From Acidimicrobiia bacterium (GTDB taxonomy: Bacteria; Actinomycetota; Acidimicrobiia; Spongiisociales; ZC4RG35), in assembly GCA_041751055.1 (NCBI GenBank), contig JBGSYD010000015.1, positions 122,018 through 186,017 on the forward strand: a DNA stretch of 64,000 nucleotides. The letters run 5' to 3'. The notes beneath the pieces are model-generated. The model did not search any database. It saw only the letters and a list, made by a program, of their open reading frames with translations, and had not been told where the DNA came from. Shown here in pieces: positions 32,125 to 40,805 of this stretch; position 1 is the first letter of the stretch; the number at the start of each line of letters is the position of its first letter. The position numbers were made by a program, and so were the translations under genes.

Positions 32125-33417
32125 TCAGTCGATTGTGCCGATCGAAATGTGACCGCACTCTGTGCAAATGTGACGGATGATGCCAATTCCGCCCGCGGCA
32201 ACCACGTATTCGTGATCATGCTGCGGCCGCCCCCTCACAAAAGCAGCCCGCACGGCTCCCATGATCCCGCCCTTTTCTGAGGCGCCGGCCAGCACAGGCT
32301 CTGGAGAAGTGTCAGGCGAGCGAGAGTCAACGTCGTCGTCGCCGACATCTCCTTCGTCTTCGAAGGCCCCGAGGTCGACCACAAATCGCTTGCTGGGCTC
32401 TTCATTGACCGGTGAAATCGGCGGTGGAACGTCTGATTCGAAAGCCGCAGAAGCGTCGGCAACGTCGGCAAGGACGGCTGGAGTGTCCGCCGGCTCGAGG
32501 TGCTTGGGCTCAGCGGGCTCTTCTGGTTCGGGGGCAAATGTGGAATCCCGGAAAGTCGCAGCCTCCTCGGGCGAGGCAACATCTGCAGGCTCTTTAGGCT
32601 CCGATGAATCCGATGACCCGGGTGTGATCCAGGGAACCGTCTCTTTGAAGACGGATTCGACGGCAAGATCCTGGTCCAGGCCCTCTTCCGGGTAGTCAGC
32701 TGGCGGGGGCGGTGTTGATCTATCCGATGCAGGCGCGTCAACTTCATGTCCCTCGGCTGCCGGGGCTTCGACCCGACCGACGTCTGGAGAATGGGTGTCT
32801 GGCGGCGACGCGGCTACTTCGCCAGCAGCAATTGGCTCCTCGATCGCAGCAGGCTCTACCGGCACAGGCTCGACGACTTTCGGTGACGCAGGTGGTGCCG
32901 CGGGCACGGCGGCCCTTGCTGCACCTGCGACCGGCGCTTGTTCGAACGCGGATCCGCCTGAGGAACCGGACTCTAGATTCTGGACCATTGCCGACCTGAG
33001 CTCAGTGATTCTCGATGGCTTGGTCCCGGCACGGGAACGACGGTTGGCCACAATCCTGCGGGGGAGCGTCATAGTTCGATATCGAGCCCAGACGTTCGCC
33101 ATCTTCTCGACGCCCCGGTACGCAAAGTCGACCGGCTCATCGGCGATAAATGTCACTTCCTCGCTACCCAGCGCGAGCGAAAAGGCGTTGGCTATTAGCC
33201 GGTCGGCCCGGACATCCACCAACGACCATCGGCCGAGCGACTCGCCTTGGAGCAACAGTTCTGTCTGGTTGTTCTCGATGAGCACAACCGCCGGCACTCC
33301 GGGATGATCGAGATCCGGGATTTTGATCTGTCCAGTGAACTTCAACTTCGCTAATCCCTCCTGGGCGGGCTCTCCTCCCAGCGAGATCGCATCCATAACG
33401 ATCCCACCGATCAACAC
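32125..33417 (-). CDS. hypothetical protein: about 150-aa N-terminal globular domain, about 230-aa acidic Pro/Ala/Glu-rich low-complexity region, short C-terminal HICTECGH motif
   Basis: 430 aa; strong compositional bias (PEPEEPAEP, PPPADYPEEG); positioned between gcvP and manC on the same strand. Confidence 0.5.
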   Translation of the reverse strand: MLIGGIVMDAISLGGEPAQEGLAKLKFTGQIKIPDLDHPGVPAVVLIENNQTELLLQGESLGRWSLVDVRADRLIANAFSLALGSEEVTFIADEPVDFAYRGVEKMANVWARYRTMTLPRRIVANRRSRAGTKPSRITELRSAMVQNLESGSSGGSAFEQAPVAGAARAAVPAAPPASPKVVEPVPVEPAAIEEPIAAGEVAASPPDTHSPDVGRVEAPAAEGHEVDAPASDRSTPPPPADYPEEGLDQDLAVESVFKETVPWITPGSSDSSEPKEPADVASPEEAATFRDSTFAPEPEEPAEPKHLEPADTPAVLADVADASAAFESDVPPPISPVNEEPSKRFVVDLGAFEDEGDVGDDDVDSRSPDTSPEPVLAGASEKGGIMGAVRAAFVRGRPQHDHEYVVAAGGIGIIRHICTECGHISIGTID

Positions 33418-33432: not shown

Positions 33433-36258
33433 TCAAACGTAATCCTCGAGAGGTGGGCAAGCGCAAATGAGGTTGCGGTCGCCGCCAACGCCGTCTACCC
33501 GACCGACTGGCGGCCAATACTTGTCGCGGCGCAATGAATCTAACGGGAACACCGCGAGATTTCTGCTGTACGGGTGTCCCCAGGTCTCAACAACGAGGTC
33601 CTCGGCAGTGTGAGGAGCGTTGATCAGCGGATTATCGTCCCTCGGCCACTCCCCCGCCGCGATTCTGTCTGCTTCGCCCTTGATCGACACCATTGCGTCG
33701 CAGAATCGGTCCAACTCTGCCAGGCCCTCTGATTCGGTCGGCTCGACCATCAATGTTCCGGCGACCGGGAACGAAAGAGTCGGGGCGTGAAAGCCGTAGT
33801 CCGCAAGACGTTTCGCCACGTCTTCGGCCGTAACCCCGGATTCCTTGGTCAGGGGTCGGAGATCGAGAATGCACTCGTGGGCGACGTGACCGTTTTCTCC
33901 CGTGTAGAGAACGGGGAAATGGGGGTCGAGCTTCTTGGCCAGATAGTTGGCCGACAGGATTGCGATCTTGGTTGCTCTTCTCAAACCATCCGGGCCCATC
34001 AGCCGGATATAGGAATACGGAATAGGGAGGATCCCCGCTGACCCGTAGGGCGCCCCCGAGATCGGACCCACGCCAGTTTCGGGACCTGCACCTTCGACGA
34101 GCGGATGATTGGGGAGGAATGGCGCCAGATGGCTTTTCACCCCAATGGGGCCAACTCCGGGGCCCCCGCCACCATGGGGAATCGTGAAGGTCTTGTGCAG
34201 GTTCAAATGGCTGACATCGGCGCCGAACTCTCCCGGCTTTGCCACTCCGACGAGGGCATTGAGATTGGCACCGTCCACATATACCTGACCACCGAAATCA
34301 TGGACGATTTGACAGAGCGTCGTTATTCCCTGCTCGAACACCCCGTGGGTGGATGGGTAGGTCACCATCGCACAGGCCAAACTTGCCGCGTGAGCCTCCG
34401 CCTTGGCACGCAGGTCATCGAGATCGACATTTCCCGAGTCATCGGTCTTGACGACTACGACTCGCATACCAGCCATGACTGCCGATGCGGCATTCGTCCC
34501 GTGTGCTGACGCCGGTATCAAACAGATATCGCGTTCTCCCTCCCCGTTTTCGCGGTGATACGCCCGGATGGCAAGCAGTCCTGCCAGCTCGCCTTGCGAT
34601 CCCGCGTTCGGCTGTATCGAAACCGATTCGTAGCCAGTGATCGCGGCAAGATATCCCTGAAGTTCTCCAATTAGCTTGTGGTAACCGCCGGCCTGTTCGA
34701 CGGGTGCGTAGGGATGAATCCCGGCGAACTCGGGCCAGGTGATCGGGATCATCTCCGAAGTGGCGTTCAGCTTCATCGTGCACGAACCCAGCGGGATCAT
34801 GGAGCGATCGAGGGCCAGGTCGCGATCGGCGAGGCGCCGCAGATAGCGAAGCATCTCGTGTTCGGATCGATAAAGGCGGAAGACAGGGTGCGTCATGAAG
34901 TCGGATTTGCGTAGTAACGGCTCACTCAACCCATTCAGATCGCCAGAGTCCTTCCTCTCAGCGGCAAACGCCTCCAGAAGGGTCTCGACCGTGCCCTCAT
35001 CCGATACCTCATCAAAGGCAATTCGAATCAGATCGGCGTCGACGACGCCGACATTGATCCCGGATCGGACCGCAGCGGTGGCCAGGTCTCTGGCCCTGCC
35101 GCCGGTCTTCACAGTGATCGTGTCGAACCAAGAATCGTTGAGCAACTCGAATCCCGACCCGGTCAGGGATTCGGCGGTGATGGTCGCCAGGCGATGGGTC
35201 TCGGTGGCTATGGCACGCAGCCCCTCGGCTCCGTGCCAGCACCCGTAAAAGCCAGACATAACGGCCAACAAGACCTGTGCGGTGCAGACATTGGAAGTGG
35301 CCTTCTCCCGTCGAATGTGTTGCTCACGTGTCTGCAGGGCCAGCCGGAACGCCGTTCTCCCCGATGAGTCATGTGAGACACCTACAAGCCGACCCGGAAG
35401 AGATCGAACATACTGGTCCCGTGTTGCGATGAATCCAGCATGGGGACCGCCGTAACCAAGCGGGACACCAAAGCGCTGTGCCGACCCGACTGCGATGTCA
35501 GCACCCCATTCCCCGGGTGGGACGAGAAGGGTCATCGCCAGAAGGTCGGTTGCGACCGCCACAACGGCTCCGGCAGTTTTGAACCTGGAGGCAAGCTCTG
35601 TGTAATCCGTGACCAGGCCAGTTGTTCCCGGATACTGGAAAAGAACCCCAAAGGCATCGCCCGGATCGGCGTCAGTGGCGAGCATGCGGACTTCCACCCC
35701 GATGGCATCGGCCCGCGTTCTGACTACGGCCAGTGTTGGCGCATGGCATTCTGGGTCGACATAAAACACGTTGCGATCGTGGTTCGAAAGGCGCCGGCAC
35801 ATGGCCATCGCTTCGGCTGCAGCGGTCGGCTCGTCCAGCAGCGAGGCGTTGGAAACATCGAGGCCCGTCAGGTCCGAAACCATTGTCTGAAAATTGAGAA
35901 GCGCTTCAAGGCGGCCCTGGGATATCTCCGGCTGATACGGCGTGTAGGAGGTGTACCAAGCGGGATTCTCGAGCACGTTTCTCTGGATGACCGGAGGCGT
36001 GACAGTGTCGTGATAACCGAGCCCGATGAGGGACGTGACCCGCCGGTTTTCTGACGCCAGAGCCTGAAGTCGGTTGACCACCTCGACTTCCGACAACGCA
36101 GGGGGCAGGTCGAGTTCCTCGTCGTGGATACTGGGCGGGACTGTTTGCTCGATCAGCTCATCGAGCGAGGCAACGCCCACAGTTGCCAGCATCTTTTCGA
36201 CTTCATCGGGACCGGGCCCGATGTGACGCTGCGAGAAGGTTTCGTTTGGATTGGGCAT
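33433..36258 (-). CDS. gcvP: glycine dehydrogenase (decarboxylating), single-chain P protein
   Basis: 941 aa; two PLP-dependent halves, full-length GcvP. Confidence 0.9.
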
Positions 36259-36315
36259 GGGATTCCTATGATCTACAGCCCTCCACTGTCGGCTTGACCT
36301 TCAGCGTCGCCTCCT

Positions 36316-36389
36316 CTGAACGGTCCGCAGGCCTGAGAGATTCGGAGGTAGTTGCCCCTTCGGCGTCCGTTGAGGACTCTCCCGTTCAG
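36316..36389 (-). promoter_or_regulatory. glycine riboswitch (single aptamer) in the gcvP 5' leader
   Basis: Minus-strand RNA GCUGAACGGGAGAGUCCUCAACGGACGCCGAAGGGGCAACUACCUCCGAAUCUCUCAGGCCUGCGGACCGUUCAG: 8-bp P1 stem CUGAACGG/CCGUUCAG, conserved GGGAGAG, CGCCGAAGGGGCAA and CUCUCAGGC...GGACCG cores; about 55 nt upstream of the gcvP ATG. Confidence 0.7.
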
Positions 36390-36450
36390 CGTCTATGGCT
36401 CAACCATCTTAGGTCGTCTTCGAGGTTGGCCACGGGCACCCTGGTTTGGG

Positions 36451-38655
36451 TCAGATGTTCGCGCTGCCCGGGGGCAGGCTGACCACCAGAACCGGCAATT
36501 GAGCGTGGTCCAGGATGTACGAAACTCTGTGACCGTAAAACGGTCTATTGGTCAGTGATCGGGCGGCAGTCCCGAGCACCAGAAGATCAAAAGCGCCGGA
36601 GTTGGCAAACCATACGATTTCCTCCTCAGCATTTGGTGCGACCCGCACCCCGGTCTCGACTGCAACTCCAAGACGCTCCCCGAAGGCAGCCGCGGTGCTC
36701 ACCATCTCCTGTCCAGCACGCAGCGAGTCCTCGATCGCGGACTTGTTGAGCATCACACCCTGGCCTTCGGGCCGGTTTACCACATGAAGTGCAAAGGTCT
36801 TGGCGCCAGAAGCTTTGGCCACCGAATACGCCAGTTCTTCGGCGGTTCGTGTCGACCTGGTGGCGGCAACCGGCACGAGGACGCGCTGGGGAAGGTCGGA
36901 TGTTTCATAACCTCTGGGAAAACGGACCACAACCGTTGGTATGTCGATGCGTCCGAGCACCCGGTCGATGATGGAGTTGAAAGTGGAGTCATGCGTCTCG
37001 GTGGCACCCATCACGACCAGGTCATACCCCAACGCGGCCTCACTCGTGATTGCAGAAGCCGGGTCCCGCGCCACCCGGCGAACGACACGAGCATCCGGCA
37101 GCTGATCCAGGACAGTGGTGGGATCGCCTGCCTCTCCTTCGATCCGTCGTAGGAGCTTCCAGATGAATCCACTCCTGGCTGCGTCGACGACCAGCACGGT
37201 GACCTCAGCATCCGGAAAAACCGCTTCTATCAACTTGGCTGCATAGGTGATGTTGGGACCGCCACGGGTCGGGACGAGAATCCGTTTCGAACCAAGGATC
37301 TCCGATGAGTCCCGGAGCTCTTCGGCCTCGAGCCGCTCAGCTTCCTCGGCGGGGATCTCCCAGCCACCCACCACGGCCCTCAACAACTGGGGCGACACCA
37401 CCGATGTCACGATCGCGGCCAACACCATGACCGTGTAACCGGTTTCCGAAACCACCTGCAGGTTGAGGCCAACTATGGCGACGACAATCCCCATTGCACC
37501 CAGCGCAGATAGCCCGGAGCCCAAGGCCAATGCCTCCCGGCCGCGGATGTGGCTGAACCAACCACCGATGAAGGTTCCCACGATTTTCGCCACGACGGCC
37601 AGGCCGATCAGGCCGGCAGTCCACCAGATCGCCTCAGATGTGTTCAGGAGCCCGATATCTACGCGGAGGCCCGAGAAGGCGAAGAAGATCGGAGCGAAAA
37701 AGGCTGCGGTCACGGTCTCGAGAACGTGTCTTACCTGGGGGACCTGGTGCCGGACTCCGGCGACCACGATGCCCATCAGAAATGCACCGAGGATCGCTTC
37801 GAGGCGGAGCGCCTGGGTCGTCAAGCCACCGAGCAGAGCTACGGCTAGCGTGATGGACAGTGCAGCGGTCACCGACGAGCCTTTGGCCATGACGAACCGG
37901 AATAGCCGGTCGAGGACCCACCGGATCAACGTGAACGCCAGAATCACAAAGATCGCCAACCCCAACAGGGAGCCCAGCAGTTGGCTGGGCTGAAATCCGT
38001 CGAGAGCGATCCCGGATAGGGCCGCAAGAATCAACCAGCCCAGCGAGTCCATCGTCATGCCTGCGGCCAGGGTCACCTGGCCGAAGTCTCGGCGCAGGAA
38101 CCCCAGGTCCTGCAATATCTTGGCGACAACCGGTAGCGCGCTGACGGAAAGCGCTAGGGCCAAGAAACTGGCGAACACCAACCTGTCGACGCCCCCGCCA
38201 TCCAGTCCCTGACCGACAAACGAATCCGGGGCAACGTGGCCGAGGGCGATGAATATCCCGAGAGGAACAAACAGGGCGCCGGCGGCCACAGAGAGGGCTG
38301 CTCCGCGGAATCTCGCGATGATGCCGAGGTCGGTCTCGAACCCGATGACGATCAAGAGCATGATCACCCCGAGCCAGGCAAGGCCGAACATCACCGATCG
38401 AACTGTCGGCTCGCCGAAAACCCAGTCGAAACTATCAGGCAGGACACGTCCGAATATCGTTGGGCCGAGCAGCACACCCGCGAGCAACTCACCGACGACC
38501 GCGGGCTGGCCCACACTTTTCATCAGCCAGCCGAGAATTCTCGCAACCGCTACCAGAAGGAAGAGCTGGACGAGGAAGACGAGTACCTCGTGTTCGCTCA
38601 GCGGCGCAGCAAAAGAACCACCGACTTCGGATGTGGAGAGCAGCACGGGATGCAA
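36451..38655 (-). CDS. cation/H+ antiporter (CPA family Na_H_Exchanger domain) fused to two C-terminal universal stress protein (UspA) domains
   Basis: 734 aa; about 420 aa with 11-13 TM helices, then two Usp-like alpha/beta modules (ILVPTRGGPN..., VLVPVAATRST...). Confidence 0.7.
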   Translation of the reverse strand: MHPVLLSTSEVGGSFAAPLSEHEVLVFLVQLFLLVAVARILGWLMKSVGQPAVVGELLAGVLLGPTIFGRVLPDSFDWVFGEPTVRSVMFGLAWLGVIMLLIVIGFETDLGIIARFRGAALSVAAGALFVPLGIFIALGHVAPDSFVGQGLDGGGVDRLVFASFLALALSVSALPVVAKILQDLGFLRRDFGQVTLAAGMTMDSLGWLILAALSGIALDGFQPSQLLGSLLGLAIFVILAFTLIRWVLDRLFRFVMAKGSSVTAALSITLAVALLGGLTTQALRLEAILGAFLMGIVVAGVRHQVPQVRHVLETVTAAFFAPIFFAFSGLRVDIGLLNTSEAIWWTAGLIGLAVVAKIVGTFIGGWFSHIRGREALALGSGLSALGAMGIVVAIVGLNLQVVSETGYTVMVLAAIVTSVVSPQLLRAVVGGWEIPAEEAERLEAEELRDSSEILGSKRILVPTRGGPNITYAAKLIEAVFPDAEVTVLVVDAARSGFIWKLLRRIEGEAGDPTTVLDQLPDARVVRRVARDPASAITSEAALGYDLVVMGATETHDSTFNSIIDRVLGRIDIPTVVVRFPRGYETSDLPQRVLVPVAATRSTRTAEELAYSVAKASGAKTFALHVVNRPEGQGVMLNKSAIEDSLRAGQEMVSTAAAFGERLGVAVETGVRVAPNAEEEIVWFANSGAFDLLVLGTAARSLTNRPFYGHRVSYILDHAQLPVLVVSLPPGSANI

Positions 38656-38667
38656 GTTAGCCGGTTC

Positions 38668-39750
38668 CTATACGTTGAACCGGAACTCAACGACATCATC
38701 GGGCCTCATGATGTAGGCCTTTCCCTCCGTTCGAACCTGGCCAACCGACCTGGCTGCGACCCAAGATCCGGCCTCCACGAGCTGGTCGTAATCGACCACC
38801 TCAGCAGCTATGAATCCCCTCTGAAAGTCAGTGTGGATCACTCCGGCTGCCTCCGGGGCGGTCGAGCCTTTCTCGATCGTCCAGGCCCGCACCTCCTTTT
38901 CCCCACCCGTCAGGTAACTCTGAAGGCCGAGGGTGTTGTAGGCAGCCTGAATCACGGCGTTCAGGCCGGGCACATCCTGACCTACAGATGCCAGGAGCTC
39001 ACGCCGCTCCGATTCGTCGAGCTCCGACAGCTCCGCCTCGACCTGTGCGTCCAGAAAGAGTGCGGTGGCCGGAGCAACCAGGGCTCGCAGGACCGATTTC
39101 CGATCTTCATCATTTAGCAGCGTTTCATCCACGTTGAACACATAGATGATTGGTTTCGCCGTGAGGAGATGGAGGTCGGCAAAGAGATCATGTTGTGCCA
39201 TCAAGTCGGCATGTGACGACACCATCTCGCCGGCGCCGACCACTTCGTGAACGCGCTTGAGGACAGCAATTTTCGTGGTAAGCGTTTTGTCCAGCTTGGC
39301 GTCCTTTTCGAGCCGGGGAAGGCGTTTCTCGATCGTCTGGAGATCGGCGATTGCCAGCTCGGTCTCTATCGTCGTGATGTCGCGTGCGGGGTCGCGCTCA
39401 CCGTCGACGTGTGCGACGTTTTCCGAGTCAAACGCTCGCACCACATGGCAAATCGCATTGACGTCGCGAATGTTGGCGAGAAACTTGTTTCCAAGTCCCT
39501 CCCCCTCGCTGGCACCCTTCACCAGACCGGCGATATCGACAAACGTGACGGCCGCCGGCACGACCTTTTTCGACTTGAACAATTCCGCGAGGACAGCCAA
39601 GCGGTGGTCCGGAATCGGCACGACACCGGTGTTGGGATCGATTGTTGCAAAGGGATAGTTGGCAGCCAGGATCCCGGCGTTTGTCAACGCATTGAACAAG
39701 GTCGACTTACCGACATTGGGGAGCCCGACAATGCCTATGGAGAGGCTCAT
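38668..39750 (-). CDS. ychF: redox-regulated ribosome-binding ATPase YchF (Obg-family GTPase)
   Basis: Start set at MSLSIGIVGLPNVGKSTLFNA (G1 motif); the 120-codon N-terminal extension in the track ORF is Arg-rich and runs antisense through gpsA; C-terminal TGS domain present. Confidence 0.85.
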   Translation of the reverse strand: MSLSIGIVGLPNVGKSTLFNALTNAGILAANYPFATIDPNTGVVPIPDHRLAVLAELFKSKKVVPAAVTFVDIAGLVKGASEGEGLGNKFLANIRDVNAICHVVRAFDSENVAHVDGERDPARDITTIETELAIADLQTIEKRLPRLEKDAKLDKTLTTKIAVLKRVHEVVGAGEMVSSHADLMAQHDLFADLHLLTAKPIIYVFNVDETLLNDEDRKSVLRALVAPATALFLDAQVEAELSELDESERRELLASVGQDVPGLNAVIQAAYNTLGLQSYLTGGEKEVRAWTIEKGSTAPEAAGVIHTDFQRGFIAAEVVDYDQLVEAGSWVAARSVGQVRTEGKAYIMRPDDVVEFRFNV

Positions 39751-39803
39751 CGTGTTCAGCAGGTTAGGGAGTCGGCGCCGATAGGGAGCACTACCGTGCA
39801 GGA

Positions 39804-40805
39804 ATGCACAAGATCGCAGTGATTGGCGCCGGGTCGTGGGGAACCACGGCGGCGTGGTTGGCATCGGCCAACACATCCGTGACGTTGTGGGCCAGACGAC
39901 CCGAGCTGGCAAAATCGATAAACGACCAGCATCAGAACAGCCGCTACCTCCCGGGAAAGGATCTCCCCGGTTCGTTGACCGCCAGCGACGACCTGGTTGG
40001 GAGCGTGAGCGACGCCGACATGGTGGTAATCGCAGTGCCGTCACACGGTTTCCGTGACGTTTTCGGAGAGATCGCCCCACACCTCGAGCCCAACATCCCG
40101 ATCCTGTCATTGACCAAAGGCATCGAGCAGCGGACTCTCTCGAGAATGACTCAGGTCATCGCACAAGTCGCCACCAACCATGACCTGACGAGGATCGGTG
40201 TGCTCACCGGCCCCAACCTTGCCTCAGAGATCGCGGCAGACCAACCGACGGCGGCCGTTGTGGCGATGACGGACCAGGAGACTGCTGCGGTAGTTCAGGG
40301 AGTGTTCATGAACCCACTCTTCAGGGTGTACACCAACGACGACGTTGTCGGATGCGAATTGGGCGGGGCGCTGAAGAACGTCATGGCGATCGCGGCCGGG
40401 ATGTCTGACGGATTGGGTTTTGGAGACAACACCCGGGCAACACTGATCACCAGGGCGCTGGCCGAACTGACCAGACTCGGGGTCCACCTCGGTGGCAGAC
40501 CTGAAACCTTCGCCGGCCTGGCCGGGATGGGAGACCTCATTGCGACCTGCGTTTCGAGTCGAAGCCGCAATCATCAAGTCGGGTACGGTTTGGCCAGGGG
40601 AAAGAGTCTCGACCAGATCATCGAAGAAATGGAAATGGTTGCAGAGGGAGTAAAGACAACGCAGGCGGTTGTCGATCTGGCGGCCGGCAACAACATCGAG
40701 ATGCCGATTGCGGCCCAGGTAGCCAAGGTGCTCTATGAGGACGTGAACCCAAGAGAGGCGATGCTGACACTCATGACCCGCCAGGCGAAACCGGAGTATC
40801 GATGA
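39804..40805 (+). CDS. gpsA: NAD(P)H-dependent glycerol-3-phosphate dehydrogenase
   Basis: 333 aa; IAVIGAGSWGT Rossmann motif, conserved GALKNV region. Confidence 0.85.
   Translation: MHKIAVIGAGSWGTTAAWLASANTSVTLWARRPELAKSINDQHQNSRYLPGKDLPGSLTASDDLVGSVSDADMVVIAVPSHGFRDVFGEIAPHLEPNIPILSLTKGIEQRTLSRMTQVIAQVATNHDLTRIGVLTGPNLASEIAADQPTAAVVAMTDQETAAVVQGVFMNPLFRVYTNDDVVGCELGGALKNVMAIAAGMSDGLGFGDNTRATLITRALAELTRLGVHLGGRPETFAGLAGMGDLIATCVSSRSRNHQVGYGLARGKSLDQIIEEMEMVAEGVKTTQAVVDLAAGNNIEMPIAAQVAKVLYEDVNPREAMLTLMTRQAKPEYR

Follow-up and report, generated by a model that had tools for sequence, protein, structure and literature searches.

A probable type-1 singlet glycine riboswitch with a ghost aptamer and a P5 pseudoknot in the gcvP leader of an Acidimicrobiia-like genome

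Results

The gcvP locus and its relatives

In the 64,000-nucleotide stretch of DNA analysed here (the window), the gene gcvP, encoding the decarboxylating glycine dehydrogenase (941 aa), occupies positions 33433-36258 of the minus strand. Its product matches the Pfam families GDC-P (3.1e-178) and GcvP2_C (8.3e-58), and the gene name proposed in an earlier sequence-only reading of this DNA thus stands. The gcvP leader is the intergenic gap of 192 nt at 36259-36450 (-), between an antiporter-Usp gene and the GcvP open reading frame (ORF). This upstream gene (36451-38655, -) encodes a CPA2-type cation/proton antiporter fused to Usp domains and is itself preceded by ychF (38668-40110, -).

To collect relatives of the locus, genome and metagenome collections were searched with the first 200 GcvP residues, and the upstream regions retrieved (designated here by L numbers) were scanned with Rfam and inspected. 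The best GcvP matches displayed 70-76% identity and all came from uncultured Acidimicrobiia or Acidimicrobiaceae. The antiporter gene is variably present at the ychF/gcvP junction: ychF is the gene immediately preceding the gcvP leader in L002, L005, L007, L081 and L082, and the antiporter-Usp gene lies between ychF and the leader in L001, L003, L004, L006, L085, L086, L087 and L098. On the other side of gcvP, 15 nt beyond its stop codon, an ORF of 430 aa begins (32125-33417, -), which probably shares a transcript with gcvP. Searches of Pfam, NCBIfam and PDB gave no match for it. Over its N-terminal ~160 aa it shows 60-75% identity to post-gcvP ORFs in L001-L005 and L007, riboswitch-less loci included; the middle is of low complexity and rich in Pro, Glu and Ala, and the C-terminus carries an HICTECGH motif.

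A single glycine aptamer in the gcvP leader

Scanning the window with 4227 Rfam families returned one match above gathering threshold in the entire 64 kb, namely the glycine riboswitch RF00504 at 36311-36394 (-). The score of 59.2 bits (threshold 32; E 1e-09) is nearly twice that required, and the match covers positions 1-94 of the 94 in the model. The gcvP ORF begins 52 nt downstream. The aptamer is a three-way junction of P1, P2 and P3 (all on the minus strand): P1 consists of 8 bp between CUGAACGG (36389-36382) and CCGUUCAG (36323-36316), P2 spans 36377-36365 and P3 spans 36364-36331. The sequence-only reading had placed glycine-aptamer elements at 36316-36389, positions that are the outer ends of P1, and had proposed an Rfam scan as the check; the RF00504 match bears this placement out. 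According to the Rfam alignment the aptamer core is complete, with GGAGAG, CGCCGAAGG, CUCUCAGG and GGAC all present. In addition to the CUCUCAGG core, P3 holds the conserved A-rich bulges GCAA and GAAU, which flank the P3b loop and are aligned to the conserved cAA and gAAu positions of the model; judged by sequence, they would be available for the predicted A-minor contacts with the ghost stem described below. Folding of the whole leader to minimum energy was uninformative (z = -0.59), the aptamer not being captured by thermodynamic folding. We regard the assignment of the leader element to the glycine riboswitch family as almost certain.

A permissive RF00504 re-scan (E<=10) of positions 36150-36600 revealed no second glycine aptamer, in agreement with the earlier claim of a lone aptamer. 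A tandem glycine riboswitch was rejected on this ground, the window leader containing one consensus aptamer only. The identical Rfam search yielded two RF00504 matches for each of nine relatives with a tandem arrangement (L024, L045, L057, L074, L078, L091, L092, L094 and L103). In all of six tandem relatives compared, the window aptamer was nearer to aptamer 1 than to aptamer 2 (alignment scores of 20-33 vs 4.5-13.5). The single aptamer had earlier been presented as a departure from the usual tandem pair; this point does not hold, singlet glycine riboswitches being a known architecture (PMC5066625).

Conservation, decay and loss among relatives

Conservation was evaluated on a set of 14 singlets, all located upstream of gcvP homologues, comprising the window and 13 relatives from Acidimicrobiia or other Actinomycetota (L002, L003, L004, L007, L031, L051, L081, L082, L083, L085, L095, L142 and L151). 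A MAFFT alignment misplaced the deletion of aptamer 2 and misaligned L051, L082 and L151 in places; sequence anchors were accordingly used to construct the element tables. The 8 bp of P1 pair in 14/14 singlets, with compensatory changes at 5/8 pairs. RNAalifold run on the same 14 sequences recovered P1, P2 and P3a, with double-sided changes in 9/25 pairs, so that the P1/P3 pairings, whose failure under covariation analysis would have counted against the sequence-only reading, are supported. Across the set, P1, P2 and the P1 of the ghost aptamer are kept with compensatory changes.

The riboswitch was absent upstream of gcvP in seven close relatives with 70-76% GcvP identity (L001, L005, L006, L084, L086, L087 and L098). 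In six of these seven (not in L005), a CTTATGATC / CTTATCATC motif lies ~15-20 nt upstream of the ATG, a position that suggests a very short leader. Another relative, L081 (element at 1362-1500; 74% GcvP identity), has the core CUCUCAGG changed to CUCUGAGG and the kink-turn GA changed to CC; its P5 complementarity is nearly gone (-3.7 kcal/mol) and its Rfam score is down to 47.9 bits. Judged by sequence, L081 appears to carry this type of singlet in a state of decay. Tandem, singlet, decayed and absent states of the gcvP leader thus coexist among the Acidimicrobiia and other Actinomycetota relatives.

The window element could itself be read as a decaying, non-functional relic of a tandem riboswitch. 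Both the outright loss of the riboswitch in the seven close relatives and the degenerate appearance of L081 in its core, kink-turn, P5 and score are in keeping with such a reading. In the window copy, however, and in clear contrast to L081, all conserved core nucleotides are retained, P1 is a perfect 8-bp helix, the kink-turn is canonical and both the ghost stem and P5 are present; we consider a relic very improbable.

A candidate promoter and the P0 kink-turn

Sequence inspection of the leader upstream of the aptamer revealed a candidate -10 hexamer of the TAnnnT type, TAAGAT, at 36406-36411 (-). A -10-like hexamer is found 4-7 nt upstream of the P0 helix in 9/9 sequences of the gcvP family of the window, the window included; eight of the nine conform to TAnnnT (TAAGAT, TATGAT, TAAACT, TACTAT), and L083 reads CATGAT. 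A two-hexamer scan with the sigma-70 consensus found no promoter. Transcription probably starts at ~36400-36398, right at P0, as suggested by the conserved -10-like hexamer taken by itself.

The leader strand of P0 and the kink-turn (36390-36399, -) consists of GCC (36399-36397), an AUA bulge (36396-36394), the G-A of the tandem sheared pairs (36393-36392) and CG (36391-36390), which leads into P1. On the other side of the aptamer, the linker (36307-36315, -) reads AG (36315-36314), the sheared G-A (36313-36312), GGC (36311-36309) and GA (36308-36307). The GGC is the 3' strand of P0, and GCC/GGC form the C-stem of the kink-turn. Judged by sequence pattern, the layout is that of a standard kink-turn, with a C-stem, a 3-nt bulge and tandem sheared G-A pairs. 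Close relatives share it, with (U)GCC, 3 nt and GA on the leader and GA followed by GGC(A) on the linker. P0 and a kink-turn have been described for singlet glycine riboswitches (PMC5066625). In the minimum-energy fold, a hairpin GGCCAACC...GGUUGAGCC at 36397-36433 (-) spans the candidate -10 hexamer and the 5' strand of P0. As modelled, this hairpin could sequester P0, which would be relevant only for transcripts reading through from the antiporter gene.

A ghost aptamer follows the aptamer

Downstream of the linker lies a ghost aptamer of 23 nt (36284-36306, -), composed of a 5-bp stem formed by CGCUG (36306-36302) and CAGUG (36288-36284), with the 13 nt AAGGUCAAGCCGA between the two strands. 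Above the stem come purine-purine mispairs (AA / GA) and then a short distal hairpin, GGU-CAA-GCC. Purine-purine mispairs have been reported atop ghost stems (PMC6239177), and the loop in the window begins with AA and ends with GA. The ghost stem pairs in 14/14 singlets, with the variants CGCUG/CAGCG, CUCUG/CAGAG and CUCAG/CUGAG and with loops of 10-31 nt.

Both strands of the ghost stem correspond to those of the aptamer-2 P1 in the tandem relatives L074, L078, L045 and L057. At the positions of the ghost, tandem relatives read GAGGC-NN-CGCUG-GAGAG where aptamer 2 starts and GACAGCG followed by a G-rich sequence where it ends. Given this alignment with the P1 strands of aptamer 2, we interpret the ghost as the P1 of a lost second aptamer; a leftover P1 of a lost aptamer is the definition of a "ghost aptamer" (PMC5066625). 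With the body of aptamer 2 missing, the element is predicted to bind one glycine instead of two.

A 9-nt direct repeat, GACGCUGAA, occurs at 36385-36393 and 36300-36308 (-), covering the 5' strands of both the aptamer P1 and the ghost stem. Only the window has this repeat in its exact form, and it accounts for an alternative pairing that the sequence-only reading had put forward as a possible expression platform: without glycine, CCGUUCAG (36323-36316) would pair with CUGAA-GG (36304-36298), breaking P1 and the ghost stem, and the resulting hairpin would act as the platform. The pairing itself was confirmed as formable. In the window the hairpin reaches -5.8 kcal/mol (duplex -5.3 kcal/mol), an equivalent of -4 to -5.8 kcal/mol is possible in most relatives, and the repeat covers both P1-type 5' strands. 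The duplex is, however, about half as stable as P1 (-5.3 vs -11.3 kcal/mol), and the pairing is weak or absent in L081 and L151. CUGAAGG (36304-36298) is moreover the 5' strand of the ghost plus its first loop bases; in tandems the homologous sequence is CUGGAGAG, with which aptamer 2 begins. The pairing arises from the resemblance between the 5' strands of the aptamer P1 and the ghost. Since the hairpin leaves the Shine-Dalgarno sequence and the AUG untouched, it gives no read-out, and the published model for type-1 singlets has the long aptamer P1 pre-formed, leaving the ghost stem and the G tract, rather than P1, to do the switching (PMC5066625). A role of this hairpin as expression platform is accordingly improbable, and we retain the reading of CUGAAGG as part of the ghost aptamer. 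The minimum-energy fold of the platform also contains a pairing of the ghost 5' strand CGCUGAAGGU with ACCUUCUCGCAGCG at +22 to +35 of the gcvP coding sequence (~36220-36240, -); this complementarity is not conserved in relatives and is probably due to chance.

Complementarity of the P3b loop to a G tract in a predicted P5 pseudoknot

In the clade of the window, P3b is an unstructured C/U-rich loop devoid of a hairpin, and a G-rich sequence follows the last P1. The P3b loop of the window, CUACCUCC (36351-36344), contains the 5' strand of P5, CCUCC (36344-36348, -). The G tract UGGAGGGC (36278-36285, -) contains GGAGG (36284-36280), the 3' strand of P5. The CCUCC/GGAGG duplex of 5 bp amounts to -8.6 kcal/mol, the weakest among the intact relatives.

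Loop and tail co-vary, reading CACCCCCG / CGGGGGUG in L045, ACUCCCC / GGGGAGU in L031, UGCCCG / CGGGCA in L057 and CGACCUUCCCG / CGGGGAAGGGUCG in L007. For 20 unique loop/tail pairs from singlets and tandems, duplexes of each loop with its own tail averaged -12.3 kcal/mol and cross pairs averaged -10.0 kcal/mol; 0/20000 permutations reached the own-pair mean, a figure that is no strict probability given that the sequences are related. The covariation between P3b loop and G tract was considered as a candidate for a new pseudoknot and rejected as such, as it is the published P5 (PMC6239177, PMC7161355). P5 was found in 85% of type-1 singlets, with support from mutagenesis in Clostridium tetani (PMC6239177), and among tandem ON riboswitches preceding glycine dehydrogenase genes, >99% of those sampled carried a polyC/polyG P5 (PMC7161355).

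The expression platform and the start of gcvP

No intrinsic terminator was predicted on the minus strand; the single predicted one lies on the plus strand, inside gcvP. Without a terminator in the window leader, the platform is presumably translational, and translational platforms are favoured in Actinomycetota (PMC12452182). We consider a translational platform the most likely one for this element as modelled. A likely Shine-Dalgarno sequence, AGGA, was identified by sequence inspection at 36264-36267 (-), 5 nt upstream of the ATG, and relatives carry AAGGA, GAGGAG or GGAG at equal spacing from the start.

Folding was carried out, for the window and its relatives, on segments that begin at the ghost stem and end at +21 or +33 of the coding sequence. 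In the window and seven relatives, the minimum-energy fold contains a helix between the G tract and the start-codon region. In the window, the region concerned comprises the start codon (36258-36256) and codons 2-4 (CCC AAU CCA; together 36247-36258, -): UGGAGGGC is predicted to pair with the G of AUG and codons 2-4, the 3' strand of this start-sequestering helix being GCCC-AA-UCCA (36256-36247), with a duplex energy of -12.1 kcal/mol. In relatives the helix is built from GGGCA / UGCCC plus GGGG / CCCC. When the G tract was blocked, the predicted unpaired probability of positions +4..+12 rose from ~0.25 to 0.5-0.9; the predicted accessibility of the Shine-Dalgarno sequence was unchanged between folding with and without the G tract blocked. 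As the G tract is shared, P5 and the start-codon helix are mutually exclusive, which agrees with the overlap between P5 and the alternative platform helix described in the literature.

No adaptation of the G tracts to their own start regions was detected: duplexes with start regions taken from the seven riboswitch-less relatives averaged -15.5 kcal/mol, those with their own -15.1 kcal/mol. The second codon is CCC in 9/9 riboswitch-bearing and 3/7 riboswitch-less relatives. Since riboswitch-less start regions pair equally well, the complementarity may just reflect conserved coding of Met-Pro-Asn-Pro. On the basis of the folding we tentatively take the G-tract/start-codon helix (36256-36247) as the switching helix; it is the best available mechanism, at odds slightly below even.

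A different use of the P3b loop would be as an anti-Shine-Dalgarno sequence in the absence of glycine, P5 formation then diverting the loop to the G tract as a decoy. In several relatives the loop is complementary to the Shine-Dalgarno sequence over 5-6 nt (CUCCUC/GAGGAG in L004 and L085; AUCCU/AGGAU in L002 and L003), and duplexes of loops with their own Shine-Dalgarno sequence average -6.8 kcal/mol against -6.0 kcal/mol for cross pairs, with 572/20000 permutations reaching the own mean. This statistical signal is weak and comes from related sequences, however, and any CCUCC-like loop is trivially complementary to any Shine-Dalgarno sequence. In the window, the best duplex between loop and leader amounts to only -3.4 kcal/mol and does not involve the Shine-Dalgarno sequence. 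Such a role of the loop is plausible in some relatives; for the window we consider it improbable, and continue to favour sequestration of the start codon by the G tract.

Regulation might also involve, beyond occlusion of the start site, termination by Rho or degradation of the mRNA early in the coding sequence, either directly or following translational repression. That no intrinsic terminator was predicted on the minus strand fits such a reading, as does the rut-like composition of the first ~40 nt of the coding sequence, which by manual count are C-rich and G-poor (~15 C vs 5 G). Such control would be compatible with start-site occlusion and need not replace it; as a separate explanation we judge it unlikely, if somewhat less so than the hairpin and loop models considered above.

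Discussion

We propose that the gcvP leader of the window contains a type-1 singlet glycine riboswitch that turns gcvP on; for identity, architecture and ON polarity taken jointly, we estimate a probability of roughly 85%. The subtype follows from the 8-bp P1, the 5-bp ghost stem and the location of the ghost 3' of the aptamer. At sequence level the element displays every feature that defines type-1 singlets, including a P1 (8 bp; 8-9 bp in the class) longer than the ghost stem (5 bp; 5-6 bp in the class).

According to the proposed mechanism, the RNA would start at ~36399 and fold into P0 and the kink-turn, an aptamer of the aptamer-1 type, the 23-nt ghost and the G tract. Without glycine, the G tract (36285-36278) would pair with the G of AUG and codons 2-4, hindering ribosome loading. 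With glycine, the ghost stem and P5 would capture the G tract, the start site would be freed and gcvP would be ON. In type-1 singlets generally, glycine binding is described as stabilising A-minor docking of the P3 bulges onto the ghost stem, and P5 as being mutually exclusive with part of the OFF-state platform helix. Literature and folding together make it likely that gcvP is switched on when glycine is abundant. The G tract alone may constitute a complete minimal translational platform for type-1 singlets, for which the P3b loop and the first four codons compete; we consider this generalisation possible but hold it with less confidence than the switching helix of the window. We know of no experimental characterisation of a G tract swapping between a P3b loop and early codons.

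The value of the finding lies mainly in annotation. Glycine very probably induces gcvP in this genome by way of a standard riboswitch, and the proper label for the leader is type-1 singlet with ghost aptamer and P5 rather than incomplete tandem. For riboswitch biology as such, nothing new is gained. Of modest value is the use of the element as a compact, terminator-free example for testing how P5 is coupled to translation initiation. In the gcvP clade, moreover, tandem, singlet, decaying singlet (L081) and riboswitch-less leaders occur among fairly close relatives, a natural series in which the degradation of tandem riboswitches could be studied. The P5 pseudoknot itself was reportedly first suggested by Kladwang et al. 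in 2012.

The type-1 singlet design is already well described, and the window element is of this standard, documented kind. Singlet glycine riboswitches and ghost aptamers were defined in 2016 (Ruff et al., PMC5066625); of the type-1 singlets, 93% are located upstream of glycine-catabolism genes, with ON switching predicted for them (Torgerson et al. 2018, PMC6239177). Singletons of type 1 group with the first aptamers of tandems, and they have been read as decayed tandems, Actinobacteria included (PMC6944388). In common with published type-1 singlets (PMC5066625, PMC6239177), the window element has a long P1, one aptamer-1-like aptamer, a 3' ghost with a 5-bp stem and purine mispairs, P0 and a kink-turn, A-rich P3 bulges, P5 and a glycine-cleavage gene downstream. 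The studied representatives are those of Listeria monocytogenes and C. tetani, the former studied for glycine binding only and the latter by in vitro transcription-termination assays, whereas the window copy belongs to a high-GC Acidimicrobiia-like genome and has no terminator. Its P3b also differs from those of the studied type-1 singlets in being an 8-nt loop without a stem.

Type-2 singlets resemble the window element in combining one glycine aptamer with a ghost stem, but have a 5' ghost, a short P1 and no P5, and 99% of them are associated with transporters (OFF), whereas the window has a 3' ghost, an 8-bp P1, P5 and gcvP. Assignment to type 2 was rejected by the 8-bp P1 and the presence of P5; the -10-like hexamer 4-7 nt upstream of P0 also argues against it, as it leaves no room for a 5' ghost. 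The 'ON-GD' tandems (Torgerson et al. 2020, PMC7161355), which include that of Streptomyces griseus gcvP, share with the window element the regulated gene, aptamer 1 and a polyC/polyG P5 after the last P1. The S. griseus gcvP riboswitch activates expression, according to Tezuka & Ohnishi 2014 as cited in PMC5666159. Among our relatives, the tandems L045, L057, L074, L078, L091, L092 and L094 can be aligned to the window across the linker and the strands of the aptamer-2 P1. Compared with these tandems, the ~70-nt body of aptamer 2 (GGAGAG...CUCUCAGG) is gone in the window, where its 5-bp P1 and 13 loop nucleotides are left.
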